The notes beneath the pieces were generated by a model. The model saw only the letters and a list, made by a program, of their open reading frames with translations. It was not told where the DNA came from and ran no database searches. A program made the position numbers and the translations under genes. This document shows positions 7,912 through 56,979 of a stretch of 64,000 nt of DNA, one piece after another. The stretch comes from an uncultured bacterium (lineage in GTDB: Bacteria; Margulisbacteria; WOR-1; JAKLHX01): the NCBI GenBank assembly GCA_964597815.1, contig CAZQZN010000001.1:151965-215964 (forward strand). Direction: 5' to 3'. Position 1 is the stretch's first letter. Every line of letters begins with the position of its first letter.

Positions 7912-7949
7912 TATAAGAGAATAATATCATATAATTTAGTATTGTAATC

Positions 7950-9904: not shown

Positions 9905-9928
9905 AACACTTATTTATCGAACAGAACT

Positions 9929-17127: not shown

Positions 17128-18183
17128 ATGAAAAAAATATTTTTTTCAGTGATAATTTTAATGTGTTTTGCTGTTTTTCTTTCATCGTGTGCCGGAAATT
17201 TCGGACAACAAGATGAAAAAGAGATTAATAAAAAAGATGAGCTAGAGGAAAACATTGTTGCAACACCCAAAATTGAAACATCTCAAACTTCTGAAGCTAT
17301 AAAAGTTTTTGGCTATCCTCAAAACACGGATGAAATCAATAATCAAGAGCAATATCGCCAAATTTTTGAGAATTTTACTGTAAAAAATATAGATGCGAGG
17401 AAAGCCTGTGAAATTTTTGCAAAAATTTTCCCTGAAGCAAGTTTTACTGAAGGGGCAAGGAGCAATCAAATAATAGTGAAAGCTATGCCGGTTGATATTG
17501 TCAGGATAAGAAAATTGTTTTCTTCAATTGATGTTCCTGTTCATCAGGTTATTATTGAAAGCCAGATTTTAGAATTGACGAAAAGCGATTTTGAAAACTT
17601 TGGATTTAGTTGGAATATTTCAAGAAATGGGATGAAAATGGCAGTAGAAAATTCGGCTATTCAATCAGACAAGATATATGCAACAATAAATGCGTTAAAA
17701 AGCAACGGGAAGGCGCGGTTGATCGCAAATCCAAGCATTGCGACAATTGATAATCAGGAAGCAAGTGTAAACATTGGCAGTAAAATTCCTTTTGCCGTTC
17801 CAGTAAATTCAACTTCCCAAGGAATGCAATGGACTATACAATATATTGACGCTGGGGTTTCATTAAAAATAACTCCAAAATTGGCTGATAATGATTACAT
17901 AATAGTTTCTGTAAATCCAGAAGTCAGCTCTATTTCAGAATGGAGGACAACTGCGGCCGGTGAATTTCCTGTCATATCAACTAGAAACGCCAGCACAAAA
18001 ATAAGAATTAAAAACGGGCAAACAATAGTGATTGCAGGACTGATAAATGAAACAGACAGAAAAAATATGTCAAAAATTCCAATAGCAGGCGATATGCCGA
18101 TTTTAGGGGCATTGTTTTCACAACAAACATTGGAAGAAGGGAATTCCGAGATTGTTTTTCTTATTAGGCCGCGAATAATATGA
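17128..18183 (+). CDS. Short secretin-family outer-membrane lipoprotein (one N domain plus secretin C domain)
   Basis: Lipobox FLSSCAGN. The C-terminal secretin domain reads ...GQTIVIAGLINETDRKNMSKIPIAGDMPILGALFSQQTLEEGNSEIVFLIRPRII. Confidence 0.8.
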   Translation: MKKIFFSVIILMCFAVFLSSCAGNFGQQDEKEINKKDELEENIVATPKIETSQTSEAIKVFGYPQNTDEINNQEQYRQIFENFTVKNIDARKACEIFAKIFPEASFTEGARSNQIIVKAMPVDIVRIRKLFSSIDVPVHQVIIESQILELTKSDFENFGFSWNISRNGMKMAVENSAIQSDKIYATINALKSNGKARLIANPSIATIDNQEASVNIGSKIPFAVPVNSTSQGMQWTIQYIDAGVSLKITPKLADNDYIIVSVNPEVSSISEWRTTAAGEFPVISTRNASTKIRIKNGQTIVIAGLINETDRKNMSKIPIAGDMPILGALFSQQTLEEGNSEIVFLIRPRII

Positions 18184-37273: not shown

Positions 37274-38431
37274 ATGGAATATGGATTAACTGAAGAACAA
37301 ATAATGATAAGAGACCTTGCAAGAAAGATTTCTGTTGAAAAAGTCAAGCCAGTCAGAGCCGAACTTGATGAAACGGGCAAATTCCCATGGGATTTAATGA
37401 ATGAATTTGCAAAAGCTGACTTGTGCGGACTTTATATTCCTGAAAAATATGGCGGTTTTGGCGGAGGTTGTTTGGAATTTTGCCTCGCAACTGAGGAAAT
37501 AAGCAGAATTTGTGGTGGGGTTGGAGTAACTTTTGCTGCTTCTGCACTCGGGGCATTTCCTATTTTAATGTTTGGCACTGAAGAACAAAAAGAGAAATAT
37601 CTTCCTGACATAGCTTCTGGCAAAAAACTTGCCGCATTTGGCTTAACAGAAGCAAACGCTGGTTCGGATGCTGCTGGAATTCAGACAACTGCAAAAAAAG
37701 ATGGTGATTATTACATTTTAAATGGCACAAAACAATGGATAACAAATGGAGGAGAAGCAGAAACATACACTGTCATTGCGATGACTGACAAATCAAAAGG
37801 CAGCCGTGGTGCGACGGCATTTATACTTGAAAAAGGCATGAAAGGTTTTGACTTTGGGAAAAAGGAAAACAAAATGGGGATAAGGGCTTCGGCGACAAGG
37901 GAATTGATCTTTCAGGATTGCAAGGTTCACAAATCTCAAATACTTGGCAAAGAAGGAATGGGATTTATTGTTGCAATGAAAACCCTTGACAGAACAAGGC
38001 CCGGGATAGGCGCTCAGGCGGTTGGAATTGCGCAAGGAGCGTTAGATGAGGCGCTTGCATATTCAAAAACGAGAATTCAATTTGAGAAACCAATTTCTTC
38101 ATTTCAAGCTGTTCAACATATGCTTGCAGATATGGCAACACAGATTGAAGCAGCCCGAGCTCTTGTTTATGCAACGGCGAGGACTGTTGATGCCGGCGTT
38201 CAAGATATTTCAAAAGATAGTGCCATGTGCAAACTTTTTGCAAGTGATGTTGCAATGAAAGTGACAACAGATGCTGTTCAGATTTTTGGAGGATATGGCT
38301 ATATGAAGGAGTATCCAGTAGAAAAAATGATGCGTGATGCAAAAATCACTCAAATATATGAAGGCACCAATCAAATTCAACGAAATGTAATTGCTCTTTC
38401 ATTGATCAAAGAGTTGGCAGCGAAGAAATAA
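37274..38431 (+). CDS. Acyl-CoA dehydrogenase (short-chain/butyryl-CoA dehydrogenase-like) embedded in the fab operon
   Basis: ACAD family motifs GLTEANAGSDAAG and QIFGGYGYMKEYPVEKMMRDAKITQIYEGTNQIQR. Confidence 0.9.
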   Translation: MEYGLTEEQIMIRDLARKISVEKVKPVRAELDETGKFPWDLMNEFAKADLCGLYIPEKYGGFGGGCLEFCLATEEISRICGGVGVTFAASALGAFPILMFGTEEQKEKYLPDIASGKKLAAFGLTEANAGSDAAGIQTTAKKDGDYYILNGTKQWITNGGEAETYTVIAMTDKSKGSRGATAFILEKGMKGFDFGKKENKMGIRASATRELIFQDCKVHKSQILGKEGMGFIVAMKTLDRTRPGIGAQAVGIAQGALDEALAYSKTRIQFEKPISSFQAVQHMLADMATQIEAARALVYATARTVDAGVQDISKDSAMCKLFASDVAMKVTTDAVQIFGGYGYMKEYPVEKMMRDAKITQIYEGTNQIQRNVIALSLIKELAAKK

Positions 38432-38433
38432 CC

Positions 38434-39222
38434 ATGAACATAATAGTTTGTATAAAACAGGTGCCTGATACCACCGATGTAAAAATAGATCCAAAAACCA
38501 ACACCTTGATAAGAGAAGGGGTAAAAAGCATTATTAATCCATTTGATGAAAATGCGATAGAAGAAGCTTTGCGCATAAAAGAAAAATTTGGTGGAAAAGT
38601 AATTGTTATAACAATGGGGCCTTCACAAGCTGCAGATGCCTTAAAGACCGCAATTGCTATGGGCGCTGATGAAGCAGTGTTGATAAGCGACAGAGCTTTC
38701 GCTGGGGCGGATACTTGGGCAACATCATATACTTTATCTCAAGCAATAAAAAAAATCGGTACTTTTGATTTGGTTTTGTTTGGCAAACAGGCAATCGACG
38801 GTGATACAGCGCAAGTTGGGCCGGGTGTTGCAGAGTTTTTAGATATACCACAAATAACCTTTGCCGTAAATATAGAAATTGACAAAGAAAACAGAAAAAT
38901 CAAGGCAAAAAGACAGTTAGAAGATTCCTCAGAAACGATAGAAACAAATCTTCCTGCGGCAGTTACTGTAGTAAAACAAATAAATGAGCCGCGCATGCCG
39001 TCGTTAAAGGGACAAATCAGGGCAAAAAAAACCGAAATACCTGTTTGGACAGCTGATGATATACTTGCAGAACCGGACAATATTGGATTAAAGGGATCAC
39101 CAACTCAAGTTGTAAAAATTTTTACTCCTCCTCCGAGAGGCAATAGTCAAATTCTTGAAGGAACGCCTGAAGAGATTGCAGAAAAATTATTCCAAAAGTT
39201 AAAGGAGCAAAAGGTACTTTAA
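38434..39222 (+). CDS. etfB: Electron transfer flavoprotein beta subunit
   Basis: [13 protein letters not shown]... EtfB fold, about 260 aa. Confidence 0.9.
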
Positions 39223-40424
39223 TGGTTGAAGGAATTAGAGTAATACCTGAAAAATGCAAAGGATGCAAACTTTGTATTCCAGCGTGTCCATTTGGTGCCA
39301 TAGAAATTATTAATAAGGTCGCTGTAATAACAGATAAATGTGTTTTATGTGGCGCTTGTGTTGGAGCATGCAAATTCAATGCAATCATAATAGAAAAGAA
39401 AGAAGAATCACCAAAAAAAGATTTGTCAGGTTATAAAGGGATATGGGTTTTTGCTGAACAGCACAATGGCGAGCTTCAAACAGTTTCAATGGAACTTATT
39501 GCTGAAGGGAAAAAACTTGCAAAGGACATAAATTGTGATGTAACAGCAATACTTTTAGGTGCTGGTAATCTAAAAGATATGGCGCAGGAACTTATTAAAC
39601 ACGGTGCAGACAAAGTAATACTTGTTTCTGACAACAATTTGAAAAATTACCTTACGGAACCATTTGCTGATACAATCTCTTTCCTGATTGAAAAATATAA
39701 ACCGGAGATTTTTTTGCTTGGTGCTACTACAACCGGCAGAGATCTGGCTTCAAGAATAGCGGCAAGAATAAGGGTTGGACTTACTGCTGATTGCACTGGT
39801 TTGGATATTGATCCAGAAAAAAAGATATTATTGCAAACAAGGCCTGCTTTCGGCGGAAATATTATGGCAACTATTATTTCTCCAAATTTTAGACCTCAGA
39901 TGGCGACAGTCAGACCAAAAGTTTTCAAAAAACTTCCAAAAGATGATTCCAGAAAAGGACAAATAATAGAAGAACAAGCAAAAATAACCGAAAAATCTTT
40001 GAGGGCAAAAATTCTTGAAATAGTGAAATCAACTGAAAAAAAAGTTAATTTGGCTGAAGCCGAAATAATTGTTTCCGGAGGAAGAGGAATTGGCTGTGCA
40101 GAAAATTTCAAGATGATTCAAGAACTTGCCGAAGTTCTTGGTGGAGCAGTTGGGGCAAGCAGGGCAACTGTTGATGCTGGTTGGATATCGCAATACCATC
40201 AGGTAGGGCAGACGGGTAAAACAGTCAGCCCAAAAATATATTTTGCTTGTGGAATTTCTGGAGCAATTCAGCACTTAGCCGGCATGTCTTCCTCTGACAT
40301 AATCATAGCTATAAACAAAGATCCTTATGCTCCAATATTTAATGTTGCTACTTATGGGATAGTTGGAGATGTTCTTGAAATAGTTCCAGCTTTGACGAAA
40401 AAGTTTAAGGAGCTACTCTCTTGA
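39222..40424 (+). CDS. etfA: Electron transfer flavoprotein alpha subunit with N-terminal 2x[4Fe-4S] ferredoxin domain (CarE/FixB-like)
   Basis: [12 protein letters not shown] and [12 protein letters not shown] ferredoxin motifs precede EtfA domains, including the FAD-binding C-terminus. Confidence 0.9.
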
Positions 40425-42069: not shown

Positions 42070-42151
42070 ATTAATTGTCTTGACGGTTTCTTCCATAACT
42101 TTTAGAAGTTATAATATAATAAATTGTAAGAAAGGCAGGTGAATGGGTAAA

Positions 42152-42397
42152 ATGGATGAAAAGGAAATATTTGAAAAAGTAAAAAAAGTGGTGGTTGAAC
42201 AACTTGGTGTCAGCGATTCTGAAGTAACGGAAAAATCATCTTTCGTAGATGATTTGGGGGCAGATTCTCTAGACACGGTTGAGTTAGTTATGGCTTTAGA
42301 GGAAGCATTTGGGCTTGAAATCCCAGATGAAGAAGCTGAAAAAATAAAAACAGTGGGCGATACTGTAAAGTATATAATGTCCCACGCGAAAAACTGA
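42152..42397 (+). CDS. acpP: Acyl carrier protein
   Basis: [18 protein letters not shown] with the phosphopantetheine Ser. The start is taken at the second ATG (RBS aggtga 9 nt upstream); the track's ATG at 42143 abuts the RBS. Confidence 0.9.
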
Positions 42398-43371
42398 TGA
42401 AATTGCCAACATTAAAAATTGGAAATCTTTTAGCCAAAATTCCAATAATTCAAGGTGGTATGTCCATAAGAATTTCTGGCGGGAAATTGGCTGGCGCTGT
42501 TGCAGCTACTGGTGCAATTGGCGTGATAGGAGCATCCGGCCTTGAACATGAAGAATTGGCCAACGAAATAAAAACGGCCAGAGAAATAGCAAATGGCGGC
42601 ATAATCGGGATAAACATACTCTATGCCGCCACCGATTTTTTGGGGATTGTAAAAACTGCAATAAAAGAAAAAATAGATTTTATAACTTCCGGTGCTGGAT
42701 TTTCCCGAGATCTTTTCAAAATTGGAAAAGAAGCCAATGTTCCAATAATTCCTATTGTGTCTTCAGGCAAACTCGCAACTCTTGCTGAGCAACTTGGAGC
42801 GGCTGCTATAGTTGCTGAAAGCAAAGAAGCCGGCGGTCATCTTGGAACTCTGGAAAAGACAACCGAACAACTCTTAAAAGAAGTAAAGTCCTCTGTAAAA
42901 AATATACCTGTTATTGCAGCTGGTGGGATGGCTGATGGTTATGATATAGCGAAAATGTTAAATTTGGGTGCTGATGGAGTTCAGCTTGCCACAAGGTTTA
43001 TTATCTCTGAAGAGTGCAATGCAGCACTTCCTTATAAAATGGTTCATGCAAACACAACTAATCCAAATGATGTGATAATAATAAAGAGCCCTGTTGGTAT
43101 GCCCGGTAGAGCCATAAGAAACAAGTTGACAAATGATATGTTAAAAGGTATTTATCCTCCAATACCATACTGTGACAACTGCCTTAAATTTTGCTCAAAA
43201 CAATATTGCATTTTCGATGTTTTGAAAAAAGCCCAAAAGGGTGATATCGAAAATGGATTGATTTTTACGGGAGAGAGCATTTCAAAAATTAAAGATAAGG
43301 TTATAAAACCTGTTGCTGAAATTATCAGACAACTGGTCAAGGAGGCAGAATTAGCTTATGTTGGAACGTAG
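42397..43371 (+). CDS. fabK: Enoyl-ACP reductase II (FMN-dependent NPD/FabK family)
   Basis: IIQGGMSIRISGGKLAGAVAATGAIGVIGASG... TIM-barrel NPD family. Confidence 0.82.
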   Translation: MKLPTLKIGNLLAKIPIIQGGMSIRISGGKLAGAVAATGAIGVIGASGLEHEELANEIKTAREIANGGIIGINILYAATDFLGIVKTAIKEKIDFITSGAGFSRDLFKIGKEANVPIIPIVSSGKLATLAEQLGAAAIVAESKEAGGHLGTLEKTTEQLLKEVKSSVKNIPVIAAGGMADGYDIAKMLNLGADGVQLATRFIISEECNAALPYKMVHANTTNPNDVIIIKSPVGMPGRAIRNKLTNDMLKGIYPPIPYCDNCLKFCSKQYCIFDVLKKAQKGDIENGLIFTGESISKIKDKVIKPVAEIIRQLVKEAELAYVGT

Positions 43372-44602
43372 AGTAGTTGTTACAGGAGTTGGCGCTGTAA
43401 CTCCTATTGGTATAGGAAAAGAAAACTTTTGGAATGCATTAAAATCAGGGAAAAATGGAGTTGGCAAAATTTCTTATTTTGATCCTTCGCCTTTTGATAC
43501 CCAAATTGCTGCTGAAGTAAAAGATTTTGATCCTTCAATATATTTGGACAAAAAAGAGGCAAGAAGACTCGTTAATTTTATTGTTTTTGCAATTGCCGCT
43601 TCGAAGATGGCGTTAGATGATTCTGGTTTAGAAATAAATGAAAGCAATGCGCCGAATGTCGGTGTTTTAATTGGTTCTGGGATAGGAGGCCTAAAATTTC
43701 TTGAAGAACAGTCAAAAATTTTGTGTGAAAAAGGCCCTTCAAGGTGTTCCCCATTTATGGTGCCTCTTATGATAAATGATATGGCAGCTGGAATGGTGTC
43801 AATAAAAACAGGGGCAAAGGGCCCAAATAGCTGCACGACAACCGCATGTGCTTCCGGCACTAATTCAATTGGAGATGCTTATGAAATAATAAAGAGGGGA
43901 GCAGCCGATGTTATGATAACCGGTGGCACAGAAGCTGCTATTACACCTCTTGGCATTGCTGGATTTTGTGCCGCACAAGCACTTTCAAGAAGAAATGATT
44001 CGCCTGAGAAAGCGTCGCGTCCATTTGATGCTCAAAGAGATGGCTTTGTGATGGGAGAGGGAGCAGGGATTGTAATTTTAGAAGAGTTAGAACATGCAAA
44101 AAAACGCGGGGCACAAATTTATGCTGAAGTTGTAGGATATGGGATGAGCGGTGATGCATTTCACATGACTGCGCCTCACGAAACTGGAGACGGGGCAATA
44201 AGGGCTATGAAAGCCGCGATTAAAAATGCTGGCATTTCTCCCGAAAAAATTGATTATATTAACGCTCATGGCACATCGACTCAATTAAACGACAAGCTGG
44301 AAACTCTTGCTATAAAAAAAGTATTTGGAGAATATTCAAAAAAAATTGCAATCAACTCAACAAAATCAATGATTGGTCATCTCTTGGGTGCTGCTGGTGG
44401 TGTTGAATTTGTCGCGATGGTTCTTTCAGTAAAAAATGATTTTATTCACCCTACAATAAATTATGAATATCCCGATCCAGAGTGCGATTTGGATTATGTG
44501 CCAAATGTCGGAAGAGATCAAAAAATCAATTATGCTATGAGCAATTCTTTTGGATTTGGCGGACATAATGCTGTCATAATTTGCAAAAAATTCAACGCCT
44601 AA
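43358..44602 (+). CDS. fabF: 3-oxoacyl-ACP synthase II
   Basis: Active-site Cys (TTACASG) and the characteristic INAHGTST and KSMIGHLLGAAG His motifs. Confidence 0.9.
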   Translation: MLERRVVVTGVGAVTPIGIGKENFWNALKSGKNGVGKISYFDPSPFDTQIAAEVKDFDPSIYLDKKEARRLVNFIVFAIAASKMALDDSGLEINESNAPNVGVLIGSGIGGLKFLEEQSKILCEKGPSRCSPFMVPLMINDMAAGMVSIKTGAKGPNSCTTTACASGTNSIGDAYEIIKRGAADVMITGGTEAAITPLGIAGFCAAQALSRRNDSPEKASRPFDAQRDGFVMGEGAGIVILEELEHAKKRGAQIYAEVVGYGMSGDAFHMTAPHETGDGAIRAMKAAIKNAGISPEKIDYINAHGTSTQLNDKLETLAIKKVFGEYSKKIAINSTKSMIGHLLGAAGGVEFVAMVLSVKNDFIHPTINYEYPDPECDLDYVPNVGRDQKINYAMSNSFGFGGHNAVIICKKFNA

Positions 44603-46638
44603 TTCTGAGCATTATTTTTAAAAACCAAACTAAAAGTAGTCCCTTTTTCAATTTCGCTTTCAACAGATATTGCTGCGTTGTGTTCATTGGCAAATCTAAA
44701 AGCTATAGCGAGTCCTAATCCTGTGCCATGTTCTTTTGTTGTAAAAAACGGATCAAATATTTTCCCCAGCATTTCTTTTGATATTCCTTTTCCGGTGTCA
44801 GAAATTTTAATTATAACTTCTTCATCTTTTTTTTCAGAGTGTAATGACAATATTCCTCCATTTGGCATTGCGTCAATAGCGTTTATAAACAAGTTTAATA
44901 GAACCTGCTTCATTCTGTTTTTGTCAGCCAATACAATATGATCCTCGCTTGTTTGATTTGTTATGATAATATTTTTTCCTTTTGCCAAATCGCGCACAAG
45001 AATTATTGTTTCTTCTGAAAGTTCTTTTGGGTTGATTTTCTCTATTACAGGAGTGGATTGTTTTGAATAGTCTTGAATACCTTGTAAAATGAGTTTTATT
45101 CTTCTTATTTCATTTTGGAGCAATACTGAATAATTGTCCAAAAATTCTTTATTATCAATTTGATGTGGGAGAAGTTGCGAAAAAATTGAGACAAAAGTCA
45201 AGGCATTTTTTACTTCATGCGCAATGCCAGCTATAACAACACCCAAACTTGCCAATTTTTCAAGTTTTAATGATTTTTCAAGAGATTTAATTTTTTGTTT
45301 ATATCTAATGGCGTTATCAATTCCGGCAGCGGTTTGATTTGCCAAGGTTTCAAAAAGCTGAATTTCTTCATCTGAAAATGGTGTCATATCTTTTTTGCAG
45401 TCAGAAGCGAGAAATCCCAAGAGTTTTTGTTCTTCACCACCAAAACAAGGAACAAGCAAAGTTATGTCCTTGTCAAAAATATCTATTTCCTCTTTGACGA
45501 TTGATGATTTTGTTTTTATTAATTCTTTAATAGTACTGTTTTCTTGAGAAATAAATGTGCCTTTAAGCTTTGTCAAAGAACCTTTTGCACTTGTGCAAAT
45601 ATATGCTGAGCATTCCTCATCTATGATAAAGGTTGCAACACCGTTCAATTTCAGAGTTATTGACGATGTATTGGTAATAAATTTTGAAAATTCTTCAATT
45701 GTTCTGAGTTTTTTGATTTTGTGCGAAAATTTTACTGCAATTTTTTCTGCCAAGAGCTTTGTTTTGAAAAATGTTTTATCAATAAATGAAATAGAAAAGT
45801 TCATAAGCGGGTAATATGCTATTGAAGCGATAATCAGAAATGGAAGAGTGCCCCAAAAAGAATTTAGATTTATAAACGGCAAAGATATATTGCTTGTAAT
45901 AAACATTATTGAGAAAAATATGACAGTAAACAAAACTGTTGAAACAGAATATAAAACACTTTTCCTGATGAGCATTTCAATGTTCATAAGCCTGTATCTT
46001 GTTATGGCATATGTTGTGAATGAGACAAATATTACTGTTGCAGAAGGACCAATAAAATTCAGTTTTGAAGTGCCTAATAGAGGAAGAATCAAATTGGTTA
46101 TTATGCCAATTAATGTTGAAATAACCATGCCAAAGAACATATATGATAATTTTGCTTTAATTAATGGTGTTGAAATTTTATATTTTTTGTATAGGATAAA
46201 GAATCCCACGATCACAAATGAAACGAAATATATTGCAAAAATGCTGTTGCCAATCCCATAGGCAACTTCTCTGTCAAAGCTGTTCACAGATTTTACAATG
46301 ATATCGGTTGGAATCATCGGTAAAAACAAAAGCCATGGTGAAAATATCGCTAATATATGCCATATTCCAAATGGTTTTTCTTTTTCAGAAAATAAAAATG
46401 AAAAATATAAAAAAGAGGATGGGATTAAGATTGGTCCGAGGAACATTAATCTTGCCCAAAACAAAGGATAGTTTGTCTGCCAAAACATAAATGTAGCAAA
46501 ATTCCAAATTGCGACTCCAATAATAATTGTAAATAAGGACAAATTTAAATGTCTTTTTGGCCCGTTTTTTAAAACAACAAAAGCCAAAAATAAATTTAGC
46601 AAAAATGCTGAAAATAGTATTAATGTTTTGAACATCAT
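44599..46638 (-). CDS. Sensor histidine kinase HK1, with N-terminal 7TM receptor-type membrane domain (HisKA_7TM-like), middle GAF/PAS-like region, DHp and HATPase
   Basis: Seven hydrophobic helices in the first ~300 aa. H-box IAHEVKNALTFV (His codon at 45218-45220). N/G1/G2 boxes LFINAIDAM, DTGKGI, GTGLGLAI. No receiver domain. Confidence 0.85.
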   Translation of the reverse strand: MMFKTLILFSAFLLNLFLAFVVLKNGPKRHLNLSLFTIIIGVAIWNFATFMFWQTNYPLFWARLMFLGPILIPSSFLYFSFLFSEKEKPFGIWHILAIFSPWLLFLPMIPTDIIVKSVNSFDREVAYGIGNSIFAIYFVSFVIVGFFILYKKYKISTPLIKAKLSYMFFGMVISTLIGIITNLILPLLGTSKLNFIGPSATVIFVSFTTYAITRYRLMNIEMLIRKSVLYSVSTVLFTVIFFSIMFITSNISLPFINLNSFWGTLPFLIIASIAYYPLMNFSISFIDKTFFKTKLLAEKIAVKFSHKIKKLRTIEEFSKFITNTSSITLKLNGVATFIIDEECSAYICTSAKGSLTKLKGTFISQENSTIKELIKTKSSIVKEEIDIFDKDITLLVPCFGGEEQKLLGFLASDCKKDMTPFSDEEIQLFETLANQTAAGIDNAIRYKQKIKSLEKSLKLEKLASLGVVIAGIAHEVKNALTFVSIFSQLLPHQIDNKEFLDNYSVLLQNEIRRIKLILQGIQDYSKQSTPVIEKINPKELSEETIILVRDLAKGKNIIITNQTSEDHIVLADKNRMKQVLLNLFINAIDAMPNGGILSLHSEKKDEEVIIKISDTGKGISKEMLGKIFDPFFTTKEHGTGLGLAIAFRFANEHNAAISVESEIEKGTTFSLVFKNNAQN

Positions 46639-47207
46639 ATTTTCAAAATTTTAACAAGTTTTTTTATTAAATTTGCTCTTCTCACATTTTTTTGATCTTT
46701 TTCGTAAGAAGAATTGTTATCGATATCCAGCGCCATTGCGCATGCTTTGCCGACATCATAAAAGTCAAACTTTAGCAAAGTATTAAATCCAAATTTTTTG
46801 TATAGTTCTATATTTTCTGATTTTCTCTCCAACGAAAATATCACGATTCTTTTTGCCCCATGTTCCTTAGCGTATTCATAAGCCAAAACCATAAGGCCAA
46901 GAGAAACGAACCCTTTTCTTTCTTCAGGCAATACCGCCAATTTTTGTATTTCTGCCATTGGTTTGTCTTTGAACTTTTTAAGGTCAACGAATTTTTCTAT
47001 CGGAAGATTTTCTGTGCCGGTTACAACTGTTATGACGCCAATAATTCTATTTTCTTTTTTTGCTATAAAGTGGGTTGAGGTTTTGTCAAAAGAGCTTGTT
47101 ATTGCTTCTTTTGGATAATGATCTTCATTAATGAAGACCTTCTCTCTAATGGCGATAATATCTGATAAATTTTTGTCGCCTTTTATTTGTTCAAATGTAT
47201 AATCCAT
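46635..47207 (-). CDS. GNAT-fold acyltransferase (possibly N-acyl amino acid synthase / LuxI-like subfamily; the subfamily assignment is tentative)
   Basis: IAIREKVFINEDHY...FD...H pattern and QKLAVLPEERKGFVSLGL resemble the R..VF..E/D..FD core of N-acyl synthase GNATs. 190 aa. It overlaps the HK1 start by 4 nt. Confidence 0.55.
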   Translation of the reverse strand: MDYTFEQIKGDKNLSDIIAIREKVFINEDHYPKEAITSSFDKTSTHFIAKKENRIIGVITVVTGTENLPIEKFVDLKKFKDKPMAEIQKLAVLPEERKGFVSLGLMVLAYEYAKEHGAKRIVIFSLERKSENIELYKKFGFNTLLKFDFYDVGKACAMALDIDNNSSYEKDQKNVRRANLIKKLVKILKI

Positions 47208-48010
47208 TATTTATCTACTATACCGCTTACTAATATACCTTGTCCAGCATATACTAATTTAGATTTTACTTCTTTAAAGCCGTTTTTTGATAAAAGATCC
47301 TTTATCTCTTCTCTAGAAAAGTATTTATATGCCCCTTTCTTTTGCTTATTGTTAATTATTTGGTTATAAAATAACATTTTGATTGTTGGCAATATAAGCC
47401 CAAATGCCTTAATAAGAGATTTTAGAAGTCCTAATTTTTTTCTGCCTATTCTTAATGTTTCAATGTATATTTTTTTTGGATCAAATCCTTTTTTTAAAGT
47501 TGCAATAATAAGTTTGCCTCCGGGTTTTAAAATTCGGTGGGATTCTTTAAGAGCGGATTCTCTTCCTTTGTCGCTTAAAATATAGAAAACATTTATGGAA
47601 ATAATTCTATCAAATGTATTTGATTGAAATTTGCTTTTTTTGCTAATATCTCCAAATTCTATTTTTATGTTTTCTGAAAAGATTTTTTTTTGTGCTATTT
47701 CTAATGCCTCCGGTATAATATCTATCCCAATATATTCAATTCTATTTTTTTGCAAAAGTGGTATAAGATTTCCAGTCCCGCAACCAGCGTCCAAAACCTG
47801 CTGATCAGCATCTAGTTGTGCCTCTTGAACAACTTTTTTCAGTAATGTTTGATAAGAATAAGATTCGTTGAGCACGTCATAGACTTTGAAATAATTCTTC
47901 CAAAAATTTTTTCCAAGGAATTTCTTGCTGAAATTTCTAAAAAAACTTTTTATAGAAAATCTTTTTCCAAACATATTTCTAATTTTCCAAAATAAAAGCA
48001 GTTTTATCAA
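47207..48010 (-). CDS. Class I SAM-dependent methyltransferase
   Basis: Motif I VLDAGCGTGNL, motif post-I IGIDI, motif II/III region. A likely alternative start is Met13 (nt 47974). It overlaps the GNAT start by 1 nt. Confidence 0.8.
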   Translation of the reverse strand: MIKLLLFWKIRNMFGKRFSIKSFFRNFSKKFLGKNFWKNYFKVYDVLNESYSYQTLLKKVVQEAQLDADQQVLDAGCGTGNLIPLLQKNRIEYIGIDIIPEALEIAQKKIFSENIKIEFGDISKKSKFQSNTFDRIISINVFYILSDKGRESALKESHRILKPGGKLIIATLKKGFDPKKIYIETLRIGRKKLGLLKSLIKAFGLILPTIKMLFYNQIINNKQKKGAYKYFSREEIKDLLSKNGFKEVKSKLVYAGQGILVSGIVDK

Positions 48011-48020
48011 TTATTAATAA

Positions 48021-48040
48021 ATATCCAATATTTTGGATAT
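48021..48040. promoter_or_regulatory. Perfect 8-bp inverted repeat ATATCCAA-TATT-TTGGATAT in the divergent control region between the two operons (candidate operator)
   Basis: Read directly from the sequence. It lies just upstream of the minus-strand MT gene and 160 nt upstream of the plus-strand reductase gene. Confidence 0.3.
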
Positions 48041-48146
48041 TTTGTCAATTGTAGAACTAAAAGGCTTATTCAGCTAGTTGTTTCTTGCGGGTTAAGGAAG
48101 TAAATAGAAAAGCTGATACTAATTACAATTGGATTGATCCATTTTT

Positions 48147-48175
48147 TTGCTTTATCAAACAAAAACGGCTATAAT
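48147..48175 (+). promoter_or_regulatory. Sigma70-like promoter (TTGCTT-17 nt-TATAAT) for the reductase-thioesterase-HK2 operon
   Basis: -35 at 48147-48152 and -10 at 48170-48175. The -10 ends 24 nt before the ATG at 48200. Confidence 0.45.
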
Positions 48176-48199
48176 AGAATAAACAAAAAGGAATAGTTT

Positions 48200-49393
48200 A
48201 TGAAAATAGCCATTACTGGTGTTACAGGATTACTTGGAAGGAATTTATTTTATGAAATTTTAAAGCAAAACTTAAACAATACGAATATAAAAATATTTGT
48301 TTTTGGCAGAAATCAAGGGAGCAAGTCTTTAAAACAAAGATTGATAGATGAGATAAAAAATGATGGCAGAATGTATCTTGGTATAACGACCGAACAAAAA
48401 TTAAAGAATTTTTTTGAACATTTTGAAGAAGTGATAAGGCCAGTTCATTTTGATCTGGCAAAAACTGATTTGGGAATTTCAAATCAAGATTTTGAGGAAT
48501 TAAAAAAACAAAAAATAGAGAAATTTTTCCATCTCGCGGCGCTGACAGATTTTCGTGTAACCCCCCTTATTAAAAAAAAATTAGATGAGGTAAATGTTGA
48601 AGGAACAAAGAAAGTAATAAATTTAATCGGAGAGATTGGAGTCAAACACTTAATTTTTAGTGGGTCTGCATATTCTGCTGGAATGACAAGCGGTATTGTT
48701 ATGCCGGATTGCGCAAATCCAATGGGAAAATTCAGAAATTATTATGAGCAAACAAAATTGATTGCTGAGGATGCGATCAAAGAATTTTCTAAGGAGAGTA
48801 AAATCAATTATCAGATTTTTCGCTTAACCGGAATTGGAGGCCGCTTAATTGAACAGCCTATTGGGCATGTTAGCAAATACGATATATTTTATGGATGGAT
48901 GATGTTTTTCTTTAAGCAGCGATTGTCTTCTCTAGGAGAGAAATTTTCTAATTACAATGAACCGCTAGAAATAAATGTTAGAATTGCGCTTAATAAAAAA
49001 GGTGGGATGAATGTTGCTCCTGCCGATTATGCGGCAAAAATAATGTACTTAACTTCAATTTTTGGCAATTCCAATGAGAGTTATCATATCGTAAATGATA
49101 TTGATATTCCAAATCAAAGATGTGTGGAGTTAATGTTGGAAGCATTAAATATAACTGGTTGGCAAATTGTCGATGATATTCCAAAAGAGAAAAATAAAAT
49201 TGAGCGGTTTTATTATAAGAGTGTTGGTGATATCTTTACTCCTTATGTAATGACTGATAAAATAGTTTACAATATAGACAATCTTGAGAGTATAAGAAAA
49301 AAATATAAAATCGAATGTCCGCCTATGACAGAGGACAATTTCAAAAAGTTGTTAAATTTTGCTAAAGAAAATAATTTTGGAGTAAAGATTTGA
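48200..49393 (+). CDS. Thioester-reductase-type SDR (fatty acyl-CoA/ACP reductase-like, NAD_binding_4/'male sterility' domain)
   Basis: ITGVTGLLGRNLFYEILKQ...IKIFVFGR...KQRLIDEI...VHFDLAKTDLGISNQDFEELKKQKIEKFFHLAALTDF reproduces the GxTGFLG...CLVR...GDL...LGL...HxAA pattern of terminal thioester reductases. Confidence 0.72.
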   Translation: MKIAITGVTGLLGRNLFYEILKQNLNNTNIKIFVFGRNQGSKSLKQRLIDEIKNDGRMYLGITTEQKLKNFFEHFEEVIRPVHFDLAKTDLGISNQDFEELKKQKIEKFFHLAALTDFRVTPLIKKKLDEVNVEGTKKVINLIGEIGVKHLIFSGSAYSAGMTSGIVMPDCANPMGKFRNYYEQTKLIAEDAIKEFSKESKINYQIFRLTGIGGRLIEQPIGHVSKYDIFYGWMMFFFKQRLSSLGEKFSNYNEPLEINVRIALNKKGGMNVAPADYAAKIMYLTSIFGNSNESYHIVNDIDIPNQRCVELMLEALNITGWQIVDDIPKEKNKIERFYYKSVGDIFTPYVMTDKIVYNIDNLESIRKKYKIECPPMTEDNFKKLLNFAKENNFGVKI

Positions 49394-49821
49394 AAGAAAA
49401 TATTTTTCAAAAATCTTTTACGGAGGAATTTATTGTTCATCTGTCTGACACTTCTTGTTATGGGATGGCTTTTTATCTTTCCTATCACAAATGGATTGCA
49501 TCCACAAAAGAAAAATTTTTTATAAAGAATGTTCCTCAATTTACGCAAATGTTTTCAAATGAGGGAATAAAGTTGATAGTCCTTGAAAATTACTTAAAGA
49601 TTTATAGGGAACTCAATTTGCATGAAGTAGTTAAAGTAAACCTTGTCTGTTCAGAAATAAAAAGGATTAAGGTTAAATTGAATTATCAATTATTAAACTC
49701 CGAAAATCTTTTGGTTGCTGAGGGTTATGATCGGATTGCTTTTGTGGACAGTTTTGGGAAGCCAATCATGCTGCCGGATAAAATTATGTTTGCGCTAAAA
49801 AAAATTCTTGTTGATTTATGA
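49390..49821 (+). CDS. Hotdog-fold (4HBT/YbgC-like) acyl thioesterase
   Basis: F.VHLSDTSCYGMAFYLSYHKWIASTKEKFF ... IAFVDSFGKPIMLPDKI matches the 4HBT layout (D-x-D/T...aromatic Y, C-terminal '...lP.e'). It overlaps the neighbours by 4 nt on both sides. Confidence 0.62.
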   Translation: MKENIFQKSFTEEFIVHLSDTSCYGMAFYLSYHKWIASTKEKFFIKNVPQFTQMFSNEGIKLIVLENYLKIYRELNLHEVVKVNLVCSEIKRIKVKLNYQLLNSENLLVAEGYDRIAFVDSFGKPIMLPDKIMFALKKILVDL

Positions 49822-51935
49822 ATCTGTTATCAATCTTTTGTTTTATAAACGGTTTTATAAATCTTTCCATAGGTTTCTTTTTGCTCAATCTGAATAAAAA
49901 TAAAATTATAAATATTTACTTCTTTTTGTTCACTTTGTCAATTGCTGTTTGGAATGAAGGCTATGCTTTTATGTACAGTCATCCGGATCTTAGTACCGCA
50001 CTATTGATGGCAAATATTGGAACAATAGGAATTATTTTTATTCCATTTTTTGCGAATCTTTTTGTACAAAAATTTCTAGGTCTTGAAGAGAGAAAATTAA
50101 ATGCGATCCTCACAATAATTGCATTGTTCCTTTTGTTTTTGTTGCTAAAATTTGGGTTTTATTCAGGCGTAACTAATCGTGGATTTTGGAATTATCCAGT
50201 TGCTGGAAATTTAGATTTTTTGAACATTTTGTTTTATGTGGTTATTTTTACAAAGATAAATTATCAGCTTTTTTCTGCTTATATTAGAGCTAGTGGCATT
50301 TATAAAAAAAGGATTTTTCACCTTTTGTTTGCTTTTGGGCTGGGTTTTTTTGGTTTTGTTGATTGGATACCAAATTTTATTTATTGGTTTCCTCCATTTG
50401 CCTTTTTATTGTCATTTACATGGGTTGTTGTTATTGCCTATGCCACATTTTCTGTCCGTTTGATGGATACCGAAATAGTTATTCGCAAAGGTGTCTTATA
50501 TTCGATAACTTTGTTTCTAATATCTTTTCTTTACCTTTTTTCAATATATTCTGCCAGATATTTATCACATATTTTTTCTGTTGAACAGCAGATCTGGTTT
50601 ATTTTACCAGCGGTTATAATTGCTTCTATATTGCTCAACCCAATCCGCGAGAGGATGATAAATTATGTGGATAAAACATTTTTTAAGACAAGATATGAAG
50701 CAGATAAAATCGCTCATAAGTTTTCTGAAAATATTAAACGTTTAATGAAAGTAAAAGAGCTTAGTGAATATGTAGATAGAGCTGCAATGAGAACATTTAA
50801 ATTAAAAGGAGTTTGCGTATTTGTTTTTAATGAGAAGAGTAATGAATATTTTTGCCAAGATGCTCGGGGGGATATGAAAGAATTTGTGAATAAAACAATA
50901 AATCCTGATTCCTTATTAGCAAAAGAATTAAAGCGAACAAAAAAAGTATTAACAACTGAAAATCTAAAAATACTGATGAGAGAAAAAACAACAGATGATG
51001 AACATTTCAAAATGGCCAATGATCTGATTTGTGAATTAGATAATCTTAAAGCTGTAATAGCAGTTCCAAGCATTTCATATAAAAAAGATTATTCTTTAAT
51101 TGCTTTTCTATTGTCATCTGGCAAAAAATCAGAAGACCTTTTTTCAGAAACTGATATTTCTCTGCTCGAAAATATATCTAATTTGGTATCAATAGCACTG
51201 GAAAATGCAGAGTTATTTGAAGAGCAAATGGATATTTTGACTAAATCGATGAAATTGGAAAAACTTGCTGAACTTGGCAGGGCAACTTCAGAACTTGCTA
51301 AACAATCTGAGAAAGCTTTTGCATATATTGAGTGGTTTGCAAATGAGTTTCCAAACAAAAAAGAAGATAGGGAATTTTTATTGAAAGAAGGGAAAAAACT
51401 TGAAATAGAAACTGAGAAGTTTAAATTGTTCATGCTTGGCATTTTGAATTTTTCACGCCCATCGCCATTAAAAATTGTTTCTCTTAATGTAAAAAAAGTT
51501 TTAGATGAAGTAATTTTCATGTTGTTTGGTGGGTATGACGAAAAAGATAATCAAAAGATATCTTTGGCAATAAACTGTCCTGATTATTTAAACGTTTTGG
51601 GAGATCAAAACGCACTTAAACAAGTTTTTTTCAATATTATAAAAAATGCTATAGAATCTTTCAAAAAGGATTTTGGCAAAATTGAAATAAATGTTTTCGA
51701 ACAAGGCAATAATATAATAATTCAGGTAAAAGATGATGGCGAAGGCATTGATGATAAAATTAAAGATAGAATTTTTGAGCCTTTTTTCAGCACAAAAGAA
51801 GATGGAATAGGTTTGGGGCTTTCAATAGTACTGCGTTTGGTAAAGGATATGCATGGTTTAATAGATTTTGAAACGAAGAAAAATTTCGGTTCAATATTCA
51901 CAATAACGCTACCAAAAACAAATTCCTCAAACTGA
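49818..51935 (+). CDS. HK1-paralogous 7TM-receptor histidine-kinase-like protein HK2, lacking the phospho-acceptor His (Lys at the H-box position) but with intact HATPase N/G1/G2 boxes
   Basis: Same architecture as HK1. DHp helix reads KLEKLAELGRATSELAKQSEKAF, with the Lys codon aaa at 51300-51302 aligned to the His of HK1's IAHEVKN. N box FFNIIKNAIES, G1 DDGEGI, G2 GIGLGLSIV. Confidence 0.85.
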   Translation: MNLLSIFCFINGFINLSIGFFLLNLNKNKIINIYFFLFTLSIAVWNEGYAFMYSHPDLSTALLMANIGTIGIIFIPFFANLFVQKFLGLEERKLNAILTIIALFLLFLLLKFGFYSGVTNRGFWNYPVAGNLDFLNILFYVVIFTKINYQLFSAYIRASGIYKKRIFHLLFAFGLGFFGFVDWIPNFIYWFPPFAFLLSFTWVVVIAYATFSVRLMDTEIVIRKGVLYSITLFLISFLYLFSIYSARYLSHIFSVEQQIWFILPAVIIASILLNPIRERMINYVDKTFFKTRYEADKIAHKFSENIKRLMKVKELSEYVDRAAMRTFKLKGVCVFVFNEKSNEYFCQDARGDMKEFVNKTINPDSLLAKELKRTKKVLTTENLKILMREKTTDDEHFKMANDLICELDNLKAVIAVPSISYKKDYSLIAFLLSSGKKSEDLFSETDISLLENISNLVSIALENAELFEEQMDILTKSMKLEKLAELGRATSELAKQSEKAFAYIEWFANEFPNKKEDREFLLKEGKKLEIETEKFKLFMLGILNFSRPSPLKIVSLNVKKVLDEVIFMLFGGYDEKDNQKISLAINCPDYLNVLGDQNALKQVFFNIIKNAIESFKKDFGKIEINVFEQGNNIIIQVKDDGEGIDDKIKDRIFEPFFSTKEDGIGLGLSIVLRLVKDMHGLIDFETKKNFGSIFTITLPKTNSSN

Positions 51936-56253: not shown

Positions 56254-56979
56254 ATGACTGAAATAAGAGAAATTGGTTCTTCTAATATTTCTTCTGCAAG
56301 AAATCAAAATGTTTCTGAGAGGGCTGCTGTTACAAAATCTCCAAGCTCAGCAGAAAGAAAAAACGTTGTTTCTCAAAATTCGGCAAATCAGACTGACTTG
56401 GCCAATTCTGACTTATTCAAGGCACTTGAAAATGGTGATATAAACGCTATTAAAACCGCTTTGTCTAAGGGCGCAAAAGTCAACGCAACAAATGAAGAGG
56501 GCTTAACCCCATTGATGATTGCTGCTAAAGGTGGGAATTTGGAAGCGGTAAAAGCTTTGATTTCAGCAAAAGCTGATGTTAATGCAGAGGATGTTTTTGG
56601 TTTGACACCTCTTATGTATGCAACAATTTTTGATAAGACAGAAGTTGCTAAATTTTTGATAAATTCTAAGGCACATATTAATGATGAAGTTGATGAGCTT
56701 GGCAAAAATGCTTTTATGTATGCTGTAACAAATAACAATGTTGAACTTGTTAAAGCTATGATAAACGCAAAAGCTGATGTCAATACTACAGATAACCAAG
56801 GTCTTACACCGCTAATGATAGCAGCATCAAATGGAAATGCAAAAATAGTAAATCTTTTGCTTGATGCAAAAGCAAAGGTAGATGTTAAAGACAATTTAGG
56901 TACTACGGCTTTGATGTATGCTAAAACAAATGGCAATGCTGAAATAGTAAAAGCGCTCATTGCTCATGGAGCAAAATAA
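56254..56979 (+). CDS. Ankyrin-repeat protein (6 repeats) with ~55-aa Ser/Asn-rich disordered N-terminal leader and no signal peptide
   Basis: Repeated G.TPLM.A...GN...VK.LI...A.VN modules; GGAGG RBS upstream of the ATG. Confidence 0.85.
   Translation: MTEIREIGSSNISSARNQNVSERAAVTKSPSSAERKNVVSQNSANQTDLANSDLFKALENGDINAIKTALSKGAKVNATNEEGLTPLMIAAKGGNLEAVKALISAKADVNAEDVFGLTPLMYATIFDKTEVAKFLINSKAHINDEVDELGKNAFMYAVTNNNVELVKAMINAKADVNTTDNQGLTPLMIAASNGNAKIVNLLLDAKAKVDVKDNLGTTALMYAKTNGNAEIVKALIAHGAK

Follow-up and report, generated by a model that had tools for sequence, protein, structure and literature searches.

Beside the genes for type II fatty-acid synthesis (FASII) of an uncultured bacterium of the Margulisbacteria (WOR-1 lineage JAKLHX01; GenBank assembly GCA_964597815.1, contig CAZQZN010000001.1), two divergent operons each join genes for enzymes of acyl-group chemistry to a final gene for a sensor kinase with a seven-transmembrane (7TM) domain. 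The question raised by this locus is whether the enzymes make what the kinases sense. We examined it in a stretch of 64,000 nucleotides (positions 151,965 to 215,964 of the forward strand), hereafter the window, and in loci or contigs of related genomes, numbered L001 to L091. The minus-strand operon, cassette A, encodes a class-I S-adenosylmethionine (SAM)-dependent methyltransferase (MT), a GNAT-fold acyltransferase (GNAT) and the kinase HK1. The plus-strand operon, cassette B, encodes a stand-alone thioester reductase of the short-chain dehydrogenase/reductase type (SDR), a hotdog thioesterase (TE) and a second kinase, HK2. We judge the chances to be about even that these are two cognate cassettes, in which the enzymes would make a lipid ligand, the 7TM domain would sense it, HK2 would modulate HK1, and the output would pass to an unlinked response regulator. 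The cognate relation of enzymes and sensors is the best-supported reading because the two co-vary, because the enzyme genes lie upstream and are co-transcribed with the kinase gene, because two of the enzymes occur as a gene fusion, and because the pairing recurs across phyla.

Recurrent pairing of acyl enzymes with 7TM kinases

We compared the locus with its syntenic relatives, all Margulisiibacteriota-type metagenome-assembled genomes (MAGs), on contigs that carry members of the GNAT-family clusters. The whole arrangement was found to be syntenic in four further genomes (L081, L082/83, L084/85 and L090/91), which is the co-occurrence that the preliminary description had asked for. The shared order is fab operon, fabF, HK1, GNAT, MT and, divergently, SDR, (TE), HK2, clpB and radA. 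L081 has the TE, plus an extra 341-residue methyltransferase beside HK1; L082/83 and L084/85 have no TE and carry a gene for a third kinase-like protein, HK3 (551 residues), upstream of the reductase; L082 has two further methyltransferases. In L090/91, the slot between fabF and clpB still holds HK1 and a His-less HK2, but the enzymes are different: one arm holds an MT20-like methyltransferase, and the other, that of HK2, holds an NAD-dehydrogenase, a 7TM-only protein, a PlsC-type acyltransferase and a DUF362 protein. This variant HK2 operon spans 6125-9999 (+) of L090; its dehydrogenase is shikimate dehydrogenase/AlaDH-like and its 7TM-only protein stands alone. Between HK2 and clpB, L081 (4772-5131) and L082 (943-1365) also have a gene for a PF05635 protein (23S rRNA intervening-sequence protein), which is not present in the window.

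A scan for the reductase, with one genome per species, gave 79 loci, 74 of which could be scored by clustering of open reading frames (ORFs). Reductase and kinase genes were adjacent at 32 of the 74, in Margulisiibacteriota/WOR-1, Omnitrophota, Planctomycetia, Alphaproteobacteria and others. At 26 of them, from Margulisiibacteriota/WOR-1, Omnitrophota, Planctomycetia and unclassified MAGs, a HisKA_7TM kinase lies 3' of the reductase on the same strand, frequently with a 4-nt overlap; a hybrid kinase (HisKA-HATPase-REC-REC-Hpt) takes this place at 4 loci, and a 7TM kinase lies 5' of the reductase at 2. Between the two genes there is either nothing, a hotdog TE (L001, L023, L053, L081 and the window) or a GMC oxidoreductase. 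Because the order is syntenic in four more genomes and because reductase and kinase adjoin at so many of the scored loci, the arrangement is far beyond chance.

Outside these loci, the reductase orthologues of Cyanobacteria and Bacteroidota are not linked to kinases. Those of the Bacteroidota (Phaeodactylibacter and Lewinellaceae; L034, L048, L054, L057, L058 and L064, around 10001-11170) are found without a kinase in clusters with genes for glycosyltransferases, O-antigen-ligase-like proteins, a Wzm/Wzt ABC transporter and PEP-utilising enzymes, and the family therefore has a second, non-signalling context. A 2.6-kb contig binned as Methanosarcinales (L032) carries the pair of reductase and 7TM kinase; its binning may be wrong, and if it is right the pair occurs in archaea as well.

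The enzymes could be partners of the sensors instead of makers of their ligands. The 7TM domain would then detect an imported hydrophobic compound, such as a fatty acid, an aldehyde, an alcohol or a hydrocarbon-like molecule, and the enzymes, possibly in complex with it, would metabolise or detoxify that compound. Consistent with this, a gene for a FadL/TodX outer-membrane channel lies directly 5' of the reductase in L043 and L078, a GMC oxidoreductase of the AlkJ-like class accompanies the reductase-kinase pair at seven loci (in one of them upstream), the overlaps of 4 nt suggest that enzyme and kinase are co-produced stoichiometrically, and stand-alone 7TM-only proteins occur within enzyme operons of L090 and L086. 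However, thioester reductases act on activated acyl-thioesters, and the cassettes contain no acyl-CoA ligase or adenylation enzyme. No gene for FadL or a transporter is present at the locus in the window and its close relatives, and catabolic genes are usually the targets of a regulator rather than being placed upstream of the sensor in its own operon. Sensing of an exogenous compound would also leave the cassette of MT and GNAT unexplained, and we regard it as quite unlikely.

Both types of cassette lie away from fab genes in most genomes. The trio of MT, GNAT and 7TM kinase occurs in three different arrangements, two of which are away from fab genes: in L088 REC-REC proteins are encoded on both sides of the MT-GNAT-kinase operon, and in L086/87 a receiver protein gene is followed by GNAT, MT and the kinase. 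Independent links to fab genes are seen in L043, where the reductase-kinase pair follows plsX-fabH-fabD, and in L002, where it follows a fabG-like gene. In loci related to cassette B, the kinase is followed by one or two CheY-type receivers and then by a GAF/HD-GYP-type or small unknown protein; the order in the relatives from Omnitrophota and Planctomycetia is SDR-(GMC)-7TM kinase-CheY-CheY-GAF/HD-GYP. Of the proposal that FASII supplies the cassettes with substrates, the adjacency stands; the supply itself, for cassettes that are mostly remote from fab genes, may or may not follow from it.

That the locus lies directly beside the FASII operon throughout the clade would also suit cell-autonomous homeostasis of membrane lipids. 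Here the enzymes would remodel envelope lipids, for example as aminolipids made by an OlsB/FeeM-like N-acyltransferase and a methyltransferase, or as fatty alcohols and ether-lipid precursors made through the reductase, and the 7TM kinases would gauge, in a DesK-like manner, what the cell's own membrane is composed of or its physical state and would feed back on lipid synthesis, with no signal released. A 7TM domain is well placed to read lipids of the bilayer, and the HK2 operon of L090/91 contains the PlsC-type enzyme, a glycerolipid acyltransferase. Yet most of the related cassettes are not beside lipid-synthesis genes, and the outputs found in relatives, CheY and HD-GYP, typically serve lifestyle and cyclic di-GMP (c-di-GMP) control and not transcription of lipid genes. 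Furthermore, the enzyme genes precede the kinase gene in a shared transcript, in the manner of phcBS, agr and comQXP, whereas in des/desKR the enzyme is the regulated target.

A further indication that enzymes and sensors belong together came from comparing the two halves of the kinases. Trees were built from the first 235 residues of 46 kinases, which cover the 7TM domain, and from their last 240 residues, which cover the domain of dimerization and of histidine phosphotransfer (DHp) and the catalytic domain. The 7TM tree sorted by the enzymes of the operon: the kinases accompanying MT+GNAT (6 of 6), SDR+TE (5 of 5) and SDR+GMC (6 of 6) formed one clade each, and the MT+GNAT clade included those of the non-syntenic L087 and L088. 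HK1 of the window fell in the MT+GNAT clade and HK2 in that of SDR+TE. The core tree, in contrast, sorted by lineage, with the His-less HK2 proteins together regardless of their enzymes, as sisters of the HK1 group, and with the SDR+TE and MT+GNAT kinases scattered. By the 7TM domain, the nearest neighbour of a kinase shared its enzyme class in 16/16 cases, and by the core in 7/16. Identity within and between classes was 50 and 22% for the 7TM domain, compared with 42 and 30% for the core. Over 27 reductase-kinase pairs, the identity of the reductase correlated with that of the 7TM domain at r = 0.57 and with that of the core at r = 0.41, and the identity of the 7TM domain with that of the core at r = 0.21.

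Individual kinases are accordingly mosaic. Between L081 and L084 the cytoplasmic parts are 75-87% identical and the 7TM domains 37% (HK1) and 23% (HK2). The HK2 proteins of L081 and L082 share 96% of the core and 21% of the 7TM domain, and their HK1 proteins 98% and 37%, respectively. The reverse is seen between HK2 of L081 and the kinase of L053 (7TM domain 55%, core 25%), and between HK1 of L084 and the kinase of L088 (68% and 31%). In the window, the 7TM domain of HK2 shares 57% identity with its counterpart in L081, where the operon also carries a TE, and that of HK1 shares 70% with its counterpart in L084. Compared as DNA, L081 and L082 show 89-94% identity over clpB, the cores of both kinases, MT+GNAT and the fab operon, and no homology was detected between them over the segment of the HK2 7TM domain, TE and SDR or that of the extra methyltransferase and the HK1 7TM domain. 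In both kinases the breakpoints fall at residue ~213-215, where HisKA_7TM has its C-terminal edge. Such allelic replacement of cassettes is not expected for homeostatic sensors.

Chance or inherited proximity would leave enzymes and kinases without functional coupling, and the cassettes would then be recombination blocks or mosaics of MAG assembly. The closest relatives do share the region by descent, the genomes are MAGs, and the 5' end of the kinase gene adjoins the enzyme genes, where a single recombination tract could span both. On the other hand, the same pairings appear in unrelated phyla and where there is no synteny, a fusion of the reductase and thioesterase genes exists, and the 7TM domain follows the enzyme class without exception even where the cores are 25-31% identical. 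In HK1 as in HK2 the breakpoints coincide with a domain edge, and independent assemblies (L082/L083, L084/L085) yielded the same alleles. The absence of coupling is thus largely refuted, and we hold it to be highly improbable. The coupling of enzymes and kinases that had been proposed from the window is supported by the conserved neighbourhood, the reductase-TE fusion and the co-variation of the 7TM domain.

Two enzyme sets and two unequal kinases

In cassette A, the MT gene lies at 47207-47974 on the minus strand, and its product matches the generic class-I families Methyltransf_25/11 and UbiE/CMAS-like in Pfam. It had been given the extent 47207-48010, since the mechanical ORF reaches a TTG at 48010; on the identical ENA contig (L080) it is called as 255 residues from the ATG at 47974, which is most likely its start. 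The GNAT gene (46635-47207, minus strand) encodes 190 residues, whose best Pfam family is PF21926 FeeM; the match scores 41.3 bits, with the cut-off at 27, and spans positions 2-149 of the 158 in the model. FeeM synthesizes N-acyl amino acids. Weak matches to Acetyltransf_5 and to exosortase-associated acyltransferase family models, both of which use acyl-ACP, would accord with lipid homeostasis as well; that explanation, for which an OlsA-type second acyltransferase for aminolipids is missing, we consider unlikely. The GNAT family is narrow, with about nine clusters, each of which has a methyltransferase and a 7TM kinase nearby.

Searches of the Protein Data Bank (PDB) with single sequences were too weak to class either the GNAT or the SDR. 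A Foldseek search with an AlphaFold2 model of the GNAT (pLDDT 86) ranked generic acetyltransferases at the top (1.8e-09), followed by TofI at rank 13, SbzI at rank 24 and FeeM at ranks 43 and 49, and the E-values of all of them span roughly two orders of magnitude. FeeM (2g0b_D) gave the highest TM-score, 0.70, and the search does not separate FeeM/LuxI-like proteins from acetyltransferases. The earlier assignment as an N-acyl-synthase-like protein holds for the Pfam match, which is above cut-off; the fold would suit it and an ordinary acetyltransferase alike.

In cassette B, the SDR gene (48200-49393, plus strand; 397 residues) matches NAD_binding_4 at 1e-29 (103.8 bits, model positions 1-258). 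Both TGxTGxxGR (T9-G10-x-x-G13-R14) and Y182xxxK186 are invariant in the family alignment. Classing the SDR required a family profile and an AlphaFold2 model (pLDDT 92). The profile found the reductase (R) domain of MxaA at the top of the PDB matches (2.7e-15) and aligned over its full length with a thiolation-reductase (T-R) di-domain of a nonribosomal peptide synthetase (NRPS). In Foldseek, the model was closest to MxaA, CpkC, carboxylic acid reductase (CAR), NRPS R domains and a rice fatty acyl reductase (FAR), with query TM-scores (TMq) of 0.67-0.75 over ~400 columns; GalE-type epimerases ranked below them, at about 0.6. With 63 bits against the cut-off of 213 for TIGR01746, the protein is a distant member of that NCBIfam family. 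By motifs and modelled fold, with the Rossmann motif, the catalytic YxxxK and the C-terminal subdomain of R domains all present, the SDR is predicted to be an active enzyme of the thioester-reductase type. A sugar epimerase, one of the housekeeping alternatives considered beforehand, is ruled out by the higher ranking of the R domains, and a non-catalytic NmrA-like protein or degenerate redox sensor by the invariant YxxxK and NADPH-binding motifs. The SDR has no fused carrier-protein domain, and the acyl carrier protein (ACP) encoded nearest to it is that of acpP at 42143-42397.

The TE gene (49390-49821, plus strand) encodes a YbgC/4HBT-type protein of 143 residues, with 26.4 bits for 4HBT_2 against a cut-off of 25.5, and with matches to TIGR02799 and TIGR00051 (YbgC/FadM) below cut-off. 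Its motif D20-T-S-x-Y-G is invariant in five orthologues, L001, L023, L053 and L081 being among the loci that have one, and D20 occupies what is presumably the position of the catalytic Asp in YbgC-type enzymes. The hotdog TE is confined to cassettes of the SDR+TE type and is fused to the reductase in some genomes; in one such fusion, P0026, the C-terminal domain is 41% identical to the TE of the window (9e-33).

The two kinases are paralogues (30% identity, E = 1e-75) that share the N-terminal HisKA_7TM domain (PF16927; 41.0 bits in HK1 and 38.1 bits in HK2, cut-off 28.6), as had been described. The matches cover model positions 2-222 and 6-222 of 224, and hydropathy analysis gave 7 to 9 hydrophobic segments in each protein. 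In HK1, a canonical 7TM sensor histidine kinase (44599-46638, minus strand; 679 residues), HisKA_7TM comprises residues 8-220 (45979-46617) and is followed by two more hydrophobic segments and a weak GAF match, the DHp His474 (45217-45219) and HATPase_c (44617-44925; E = 9.5e-24). In HK2 (49818-51935, plus strand; 705 residues), the corresponding domains are residues 12-218 (49851-50471) and HATPase_c at 51600-51920 (E = 4.7e-23). The N, G1, F and G2 boxes are intact in HK1, HK2 and all their orthologues.

They differ at the phospho-acceptor site. HK1 has the H-box GIAHEVKNAL, which conforms to H-E/D-x-x-N/T and whose His474 is kept in all orthologues, although its Pfam match to HisKA, 26.5 bits, is just below the cut-off of 26.9. 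HK2 gave no HisKA match in Pfam and has no His anywhere in its DHp helix (ELAK495QSEKAF), where Lys495 (51300-51302) aligned with His474 of HK1 in every alignment. All 28 other 7TM kinases of related loci have the His. In the HK2 orthologues of sister MAGs and in four further database clusters, Ser or Gly stands in its place; this His-less group (K/G/S) comprises eight clusters in all, 36-48% identical to HK2 of the window, and conserves the helix around the lost residue as EKLADLGkATAGVA-x-EAQsALSYIEWFS, while the closest His-bearing relatives of HK2 reach at most 30% identity.

A role of HK2 as a working histidine kinase, assumed in the preliminary description, is ruled out by the absence of the His across the orthologue group. 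Judged from its residues, HK2 is a conserved pseudo-histidine kinase that keeps the ATP-binding boxes and is predicted not to be phosphorylatable at the canonical site, and HK1 is by the same token the sole phosphorylatable kinase predicted in the window.

In L082 (4918-6573, minus strand) and L084 (7253-8908, minus strand), HK3 has HisKA_7TM and a DHp domain with its His and has no catalytic domain. It shares an operon with the His-less HK2, which bears a catalytic domain, and the two look like a complementary split kinase.

No response regulator gene accompanies the kinases. A hidden Markov model (HMM) built from 27 receivers of related loci, which gave 34 hits in control loci, found no receiver domain in a six-frame translation of the 64-kb window (best E = 0.06), so that this observation of the preliminary description is confirmed. 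It does not extend to the system as a whole, since relatives have CheY-type receivers beside the reductase-kinase pair, and in L088 and L086 the operon of MT, GNAT and kinase has REC-REC proteins at its flanks. The lack of a linked response regulator probably reflects where its gene lies, and because related cassettes have adjacent receivers we take that of the window to be encoded elsewhere.

From these elements we propose the following mechanism. The enzymes of the divergently transcribed cassettes A and B would turn an acyl-thioester, which is most plausibly an acyl-ACP or acyl-CoA supplied by fatty-acid synthesis, into a small hydrophobic compound, and the HisKA_7TM domain of the operon-final kinase would detect the product of its own cassette. 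Cassette A would yield an N-acylated and/or methylated product, for example an N-acyl amino-acid methyl ester, and cassette B a fatty aldehyde or alcohol. HK2 would most plausibly act on HK1, because it combines an HK1-like DHp helix with an intact catalytic domain; it could be a heterodimer partner or inhibitor in the style of RetS-GacS, or a catalytic subunit in trans. HK3, which has the His and lacks the catalytic domain, would fit the latter idea by its place beside the His-less HK2 of L082 and L084. In this way two ligand inputs would converge on the phosphorylation of HK1, and from there on a response regulator encoded elsewhere. The products' role as ligands, their release for cell-to-cell signalling and the mode of action of HK2 are all conjectural parts of the scheme.

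Several points weigh against this mechanism. The trees on which the co-variation is based were built by neighbour joining and carry no support values, and the loci lack phylogenetic independence. MT and GNAT are 93% identical between L081 and L082 while the HK1 7TM domain is only 37% identical, so that these two enzymes alone do not set the specificity of HK1. Physical binding of the enzymes by the 7TM domain would likewise produce co-variation, and simple linkage could add to it because of the position of the kinase 5' end next to the enzyme genes. Among the enzymes, the modelled GNAT is inseparable by fold from ordinary acetyltransferases, the MT falls in no specific family of Pfam or NCBIfam (with none above cut-off in the latter), TE and thioester reductase compete for one substrate, which blurs the logic of cassette B, and the chemistry of both cassettes is deduced from family membership. 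No response regulator was found within ±10 kb in any syntenic Margulisiibacteriota locus. Finally, HK2 might be a dedicated phosphatase, which is possible in the relatives, where E and N/S of the H-box are kept; in the window it appears unlikely because E and N are also lost (KQSEK).

Gene layout and regulatory sequences

The ORFs of the six cassette genes were found at the coordinates first reported, with overlaps of 4, 1, 4 and 4 nt between neighbouring genes within both operons. The domain assignments proposed for the products were upheld by Pfam in every case, and none of the six received an above-cut-off name from NCBIfam. The final gene of the FASII operon, fabF (43358-44602, plus strand; Pfam ketoacyl-synt N+C), is convergent with HK1. 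The two genes end at 44602 and 44599, respectively, with overlapping stop codons in four common bases, CTAA. This overlap, real as it is, is specific to the window genome: the corresponding gaps in relatives range from 79 to about 740 nt. Conserved transcriptional coupling of fabF and HK1, and with it the suggested cross-talk as a conserved trait, is ruled out by these gaps.

The FASII operon has the order yceD-rpmF-plsX-fabH-acd-etfB-etfA-fabD-fabG-acpP-fabK-fabF. Between fabH and fabD, at 37274-40424, genes for an acyl-CoA dehydrogenase, EtfB and EtfA are inserted, and EtfA has a double [4Fe-4S] ferredoxin domain at its N-terminus. Every syntenic MAG (L081-L085, L090) contains this insert. 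A Bcd/Etf-type module within a fab operon is unusual and may provide an alternative enoyl reductase or a link to ferredoxin.

The region between the divergent cassettes (47975-48199) contains a perfect 10-4-10 palindrome, AAATATCCAA-TATT-TTGGATATTT, at 48019-48042, which overlaps a minus-strand match to TTGACA-17-GATATT (-35/-10-like). The palindrome is a candidate operator from its sequence, and the palindrome scan did not find it conserved in relatives. Across the window, promoter-like sites (50 versus 46 expected) and terminator-like sites (9 versus 7.6 expected) were at background level, that for promoters being set by shuffled sequence, and Rfam gave no match in the window or in three relatives. 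The methyltransferase genes of relatives have retained a 5' leader of ~100 nt (L081 9039-9145; L082 6651-6860 and 9039-9145; L084 ~9010-9238), which is duplicated in L082, where the two copies share 99.5% identity over 210 nt. Within the leader, a hairpin, AACATCTC...GAGATGTT, precedes a T-run; the leader has no Rfam match and no counterpart in the window.

Downstream of HK2 lie clpB/C and radA, and the other ORFs of the window were annotated by Pfam as housekeeping genes of an ordinary core chromosome. A giant ORF of at least 2251 residues without a Pfam match occupies 57168-63923 (minus strand), beside a gene for an ankyrin-repeat protein at 56254-56979 (plus strand); the relatives have syntenic giant ORFs (2611 residues in L081 and 2463 residues in L090) and ankyrin genes. 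A secretin-domain gene at 17128-18183 is followed by an ORF of 678 residues without a Pfam match (18213-20249).

Known signalling systems and the meaning of the locus

We compared the locus with known systems that join a synthase to a sensor. PhcBSR of Ralstonia uses a fatty-acid-derived methylated signal, with the methyltransferase and the multi-pass sensor kinase encoded in one operon. The locus resembles PhcB-PhcS-PhcR, whose signals are the 3-hydroxy fatty-acid methyl esters 3-OH-PAME and 3-OH-MAME, in having a SAM methyltransferase upstream of a multi-pass sensor kinase and in the logic of a methylated fatty-acid signal. It differs in its generic class-I MT, the additional GNAT, the HisKA_7TM sensor, the lack of a response regulator in the operon, and the second, divergent cassette with its His-less paralogue. 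Membership in the PhcB/PhcS type of quorum sensing is rejected, as there is no PhcB-specific match and no regulator in the operon, and the resemblance is one of logic only.

Two further systems pair lipid-derived signals with multi-pass kinases. The Rpf system of Xanthomonas, which signals through diffusible signal factor (DSF), unites the enzyme RpfF and a multi-pass sensor kinase with a receiver and with a c-di-GMP phosphodiesterase of the HD-GYP type. The cassettes of Omnitrophota and Planctomycetia recall RpfF-RpfC-RpfG by having an enzyme that would divert intermediates of fatty-acid synthesis, a multi-pass sensor kinase, a receiver and HD-GYP; unlike Rpf, they have a thioester reductase instead of the crotonase RpfF and encode the receiver and HD-GYP as separate proteins, and the window has neither of these. 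In alpha-hydroxyketone signalling, CqsA and LqsA are acyl-transferring enzymes dependent on pyridoxal phosphate (PLP), and CqsS is a hybrid kinase. Like CqsA-CqsS of Vibrio and LqsA-LqsS of Legionella, the locus places an enzyme acting on acyl-thioesters next to a multi-pass sensor kinase for a hydrophobic product, but none of the enzyme families of the window matches theirs.

The agr locus of staphylococci shares the pherotype architecture of comQXPA of Bacillus, and the signals of both are ribosomal peptides processed by AgrB or ComQ. In the pherotype locus comQXPA, the signal-production genes and the sensor domain vary as a unit upon a conserved kinase core (PMC4408185). The co-variation of sensors and enzymes described here resembles that of such loci by analogy: between L081 and L082, the putative signal genes and the 7TM domain vary jointly, with the cores 96-98% and the flanks 89-94% identical. 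It is unlike them in that the enzymes are those of lipid or acyl chemistry, with no peptide precursor or processing enzyme, and in that the genomes of L081 and L082, about 93% identical, are probably different species rather than strains.

Kinase-like proteins that act on another kinase are also known. RetS, a hybrid kinase, has a carbohydrate-binding domain in the periplasm and has retained its His, and DivL is a His-less kinase-like protein. RetS binds the DHp domain of GacS and blocks its trans-autophosphorylation (PMC8498467). HK2, whose DHp helix is close to that of HK1, may act similarly; unlike RetS, it has lost the His, and its interaction with HK1 is presumed. In overall design both kinases resemble PrsK (TIGR02916), the kinase of PEP-CTERM/exosortase systems, with multiple transmembrane segments followed by GAF, DHp and catalytic domains, and residues 139-672 of HK1 and 203-699 of HK2 align to almost the whole model. 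Their scores, 93.3 and 106.3 bits, are far below the cut-off of 300, the window has no gene for PrsR, an exosortase or a PEP-CTERM protein, and membership in PrsK is rejected. The GNAT likewise scores 24.5 against a cut-off of 112 for the exosortase-associated FeeM-like acyltransferase (TIGR03694).

The system would work like PhcBS, CqsAS, RpfFCG and agr/comQXPA and is a member of none of them, because it has no PhcB-specific methyltransferase, crotonase, PLP-dependent synthase or peptide precursor. What is new is a synthase-receptor cassette with new enzyme families, a new receptor class, diversification by cassette type and a built-in pseudo-kinase. Of the fatty-acyl synthesis-and-perception module put forward in the preliminary description, the outline survives, as the locus does look like one; in its specific chemistry and in secretion our confidence is limited. 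Full-text searches of the literature found HisKA_7TM only in domain censuses and nothing relevant on a reductase-kinase signalling pair or on kinases of Margulisbacteria.

A broader reading is possible, which we advance tentatively and on balance doubt. The cassettes would represent a class of lipid autoinducer systems spread over several phyla, in which a reductase (with TE or GMC) makes an aldehyde or alcohol signal, an N-acyl synthase with MT makes an N-acyl amino-acid methyl ester (NAME), a cognate HisKA_7TM domain receives each, cassettes are swapped as pherotypes, and HK2 integrates the two channels in Margulisiibacteriota. The HisKA_7TM domain is widespread in bacteria and archaea and, to our knowledge, has no known ligand. 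For NAMEs, the synthase genes are not known (PMC11580390). If true, this multi-phylum reading would yield the first ligands of the HisKA_7TM family and, for compounds of the NAME type, the first candidate genes.

The co-variation of enzyme and sensor points to the products of the enzymes encoded just upstream as the ligands of HisKA_7TM domains, and it supplies matched pairs that can be tested. The swapping of cassettes with breakpoints at a domain boundary amounts to a natural experiment in rewiring the input specificity of a kinase, and the His-less HK2, together with the complementary HK3 of sister genomes, offers a compact model of pseudo-kinases and split kinases. We know of no characterised signalling system in Margulisiibacteriota, Omnitrophota or Planctomycetota, and for these phyla the locus suggests chemical communication, or the sensing of self-made lipids.

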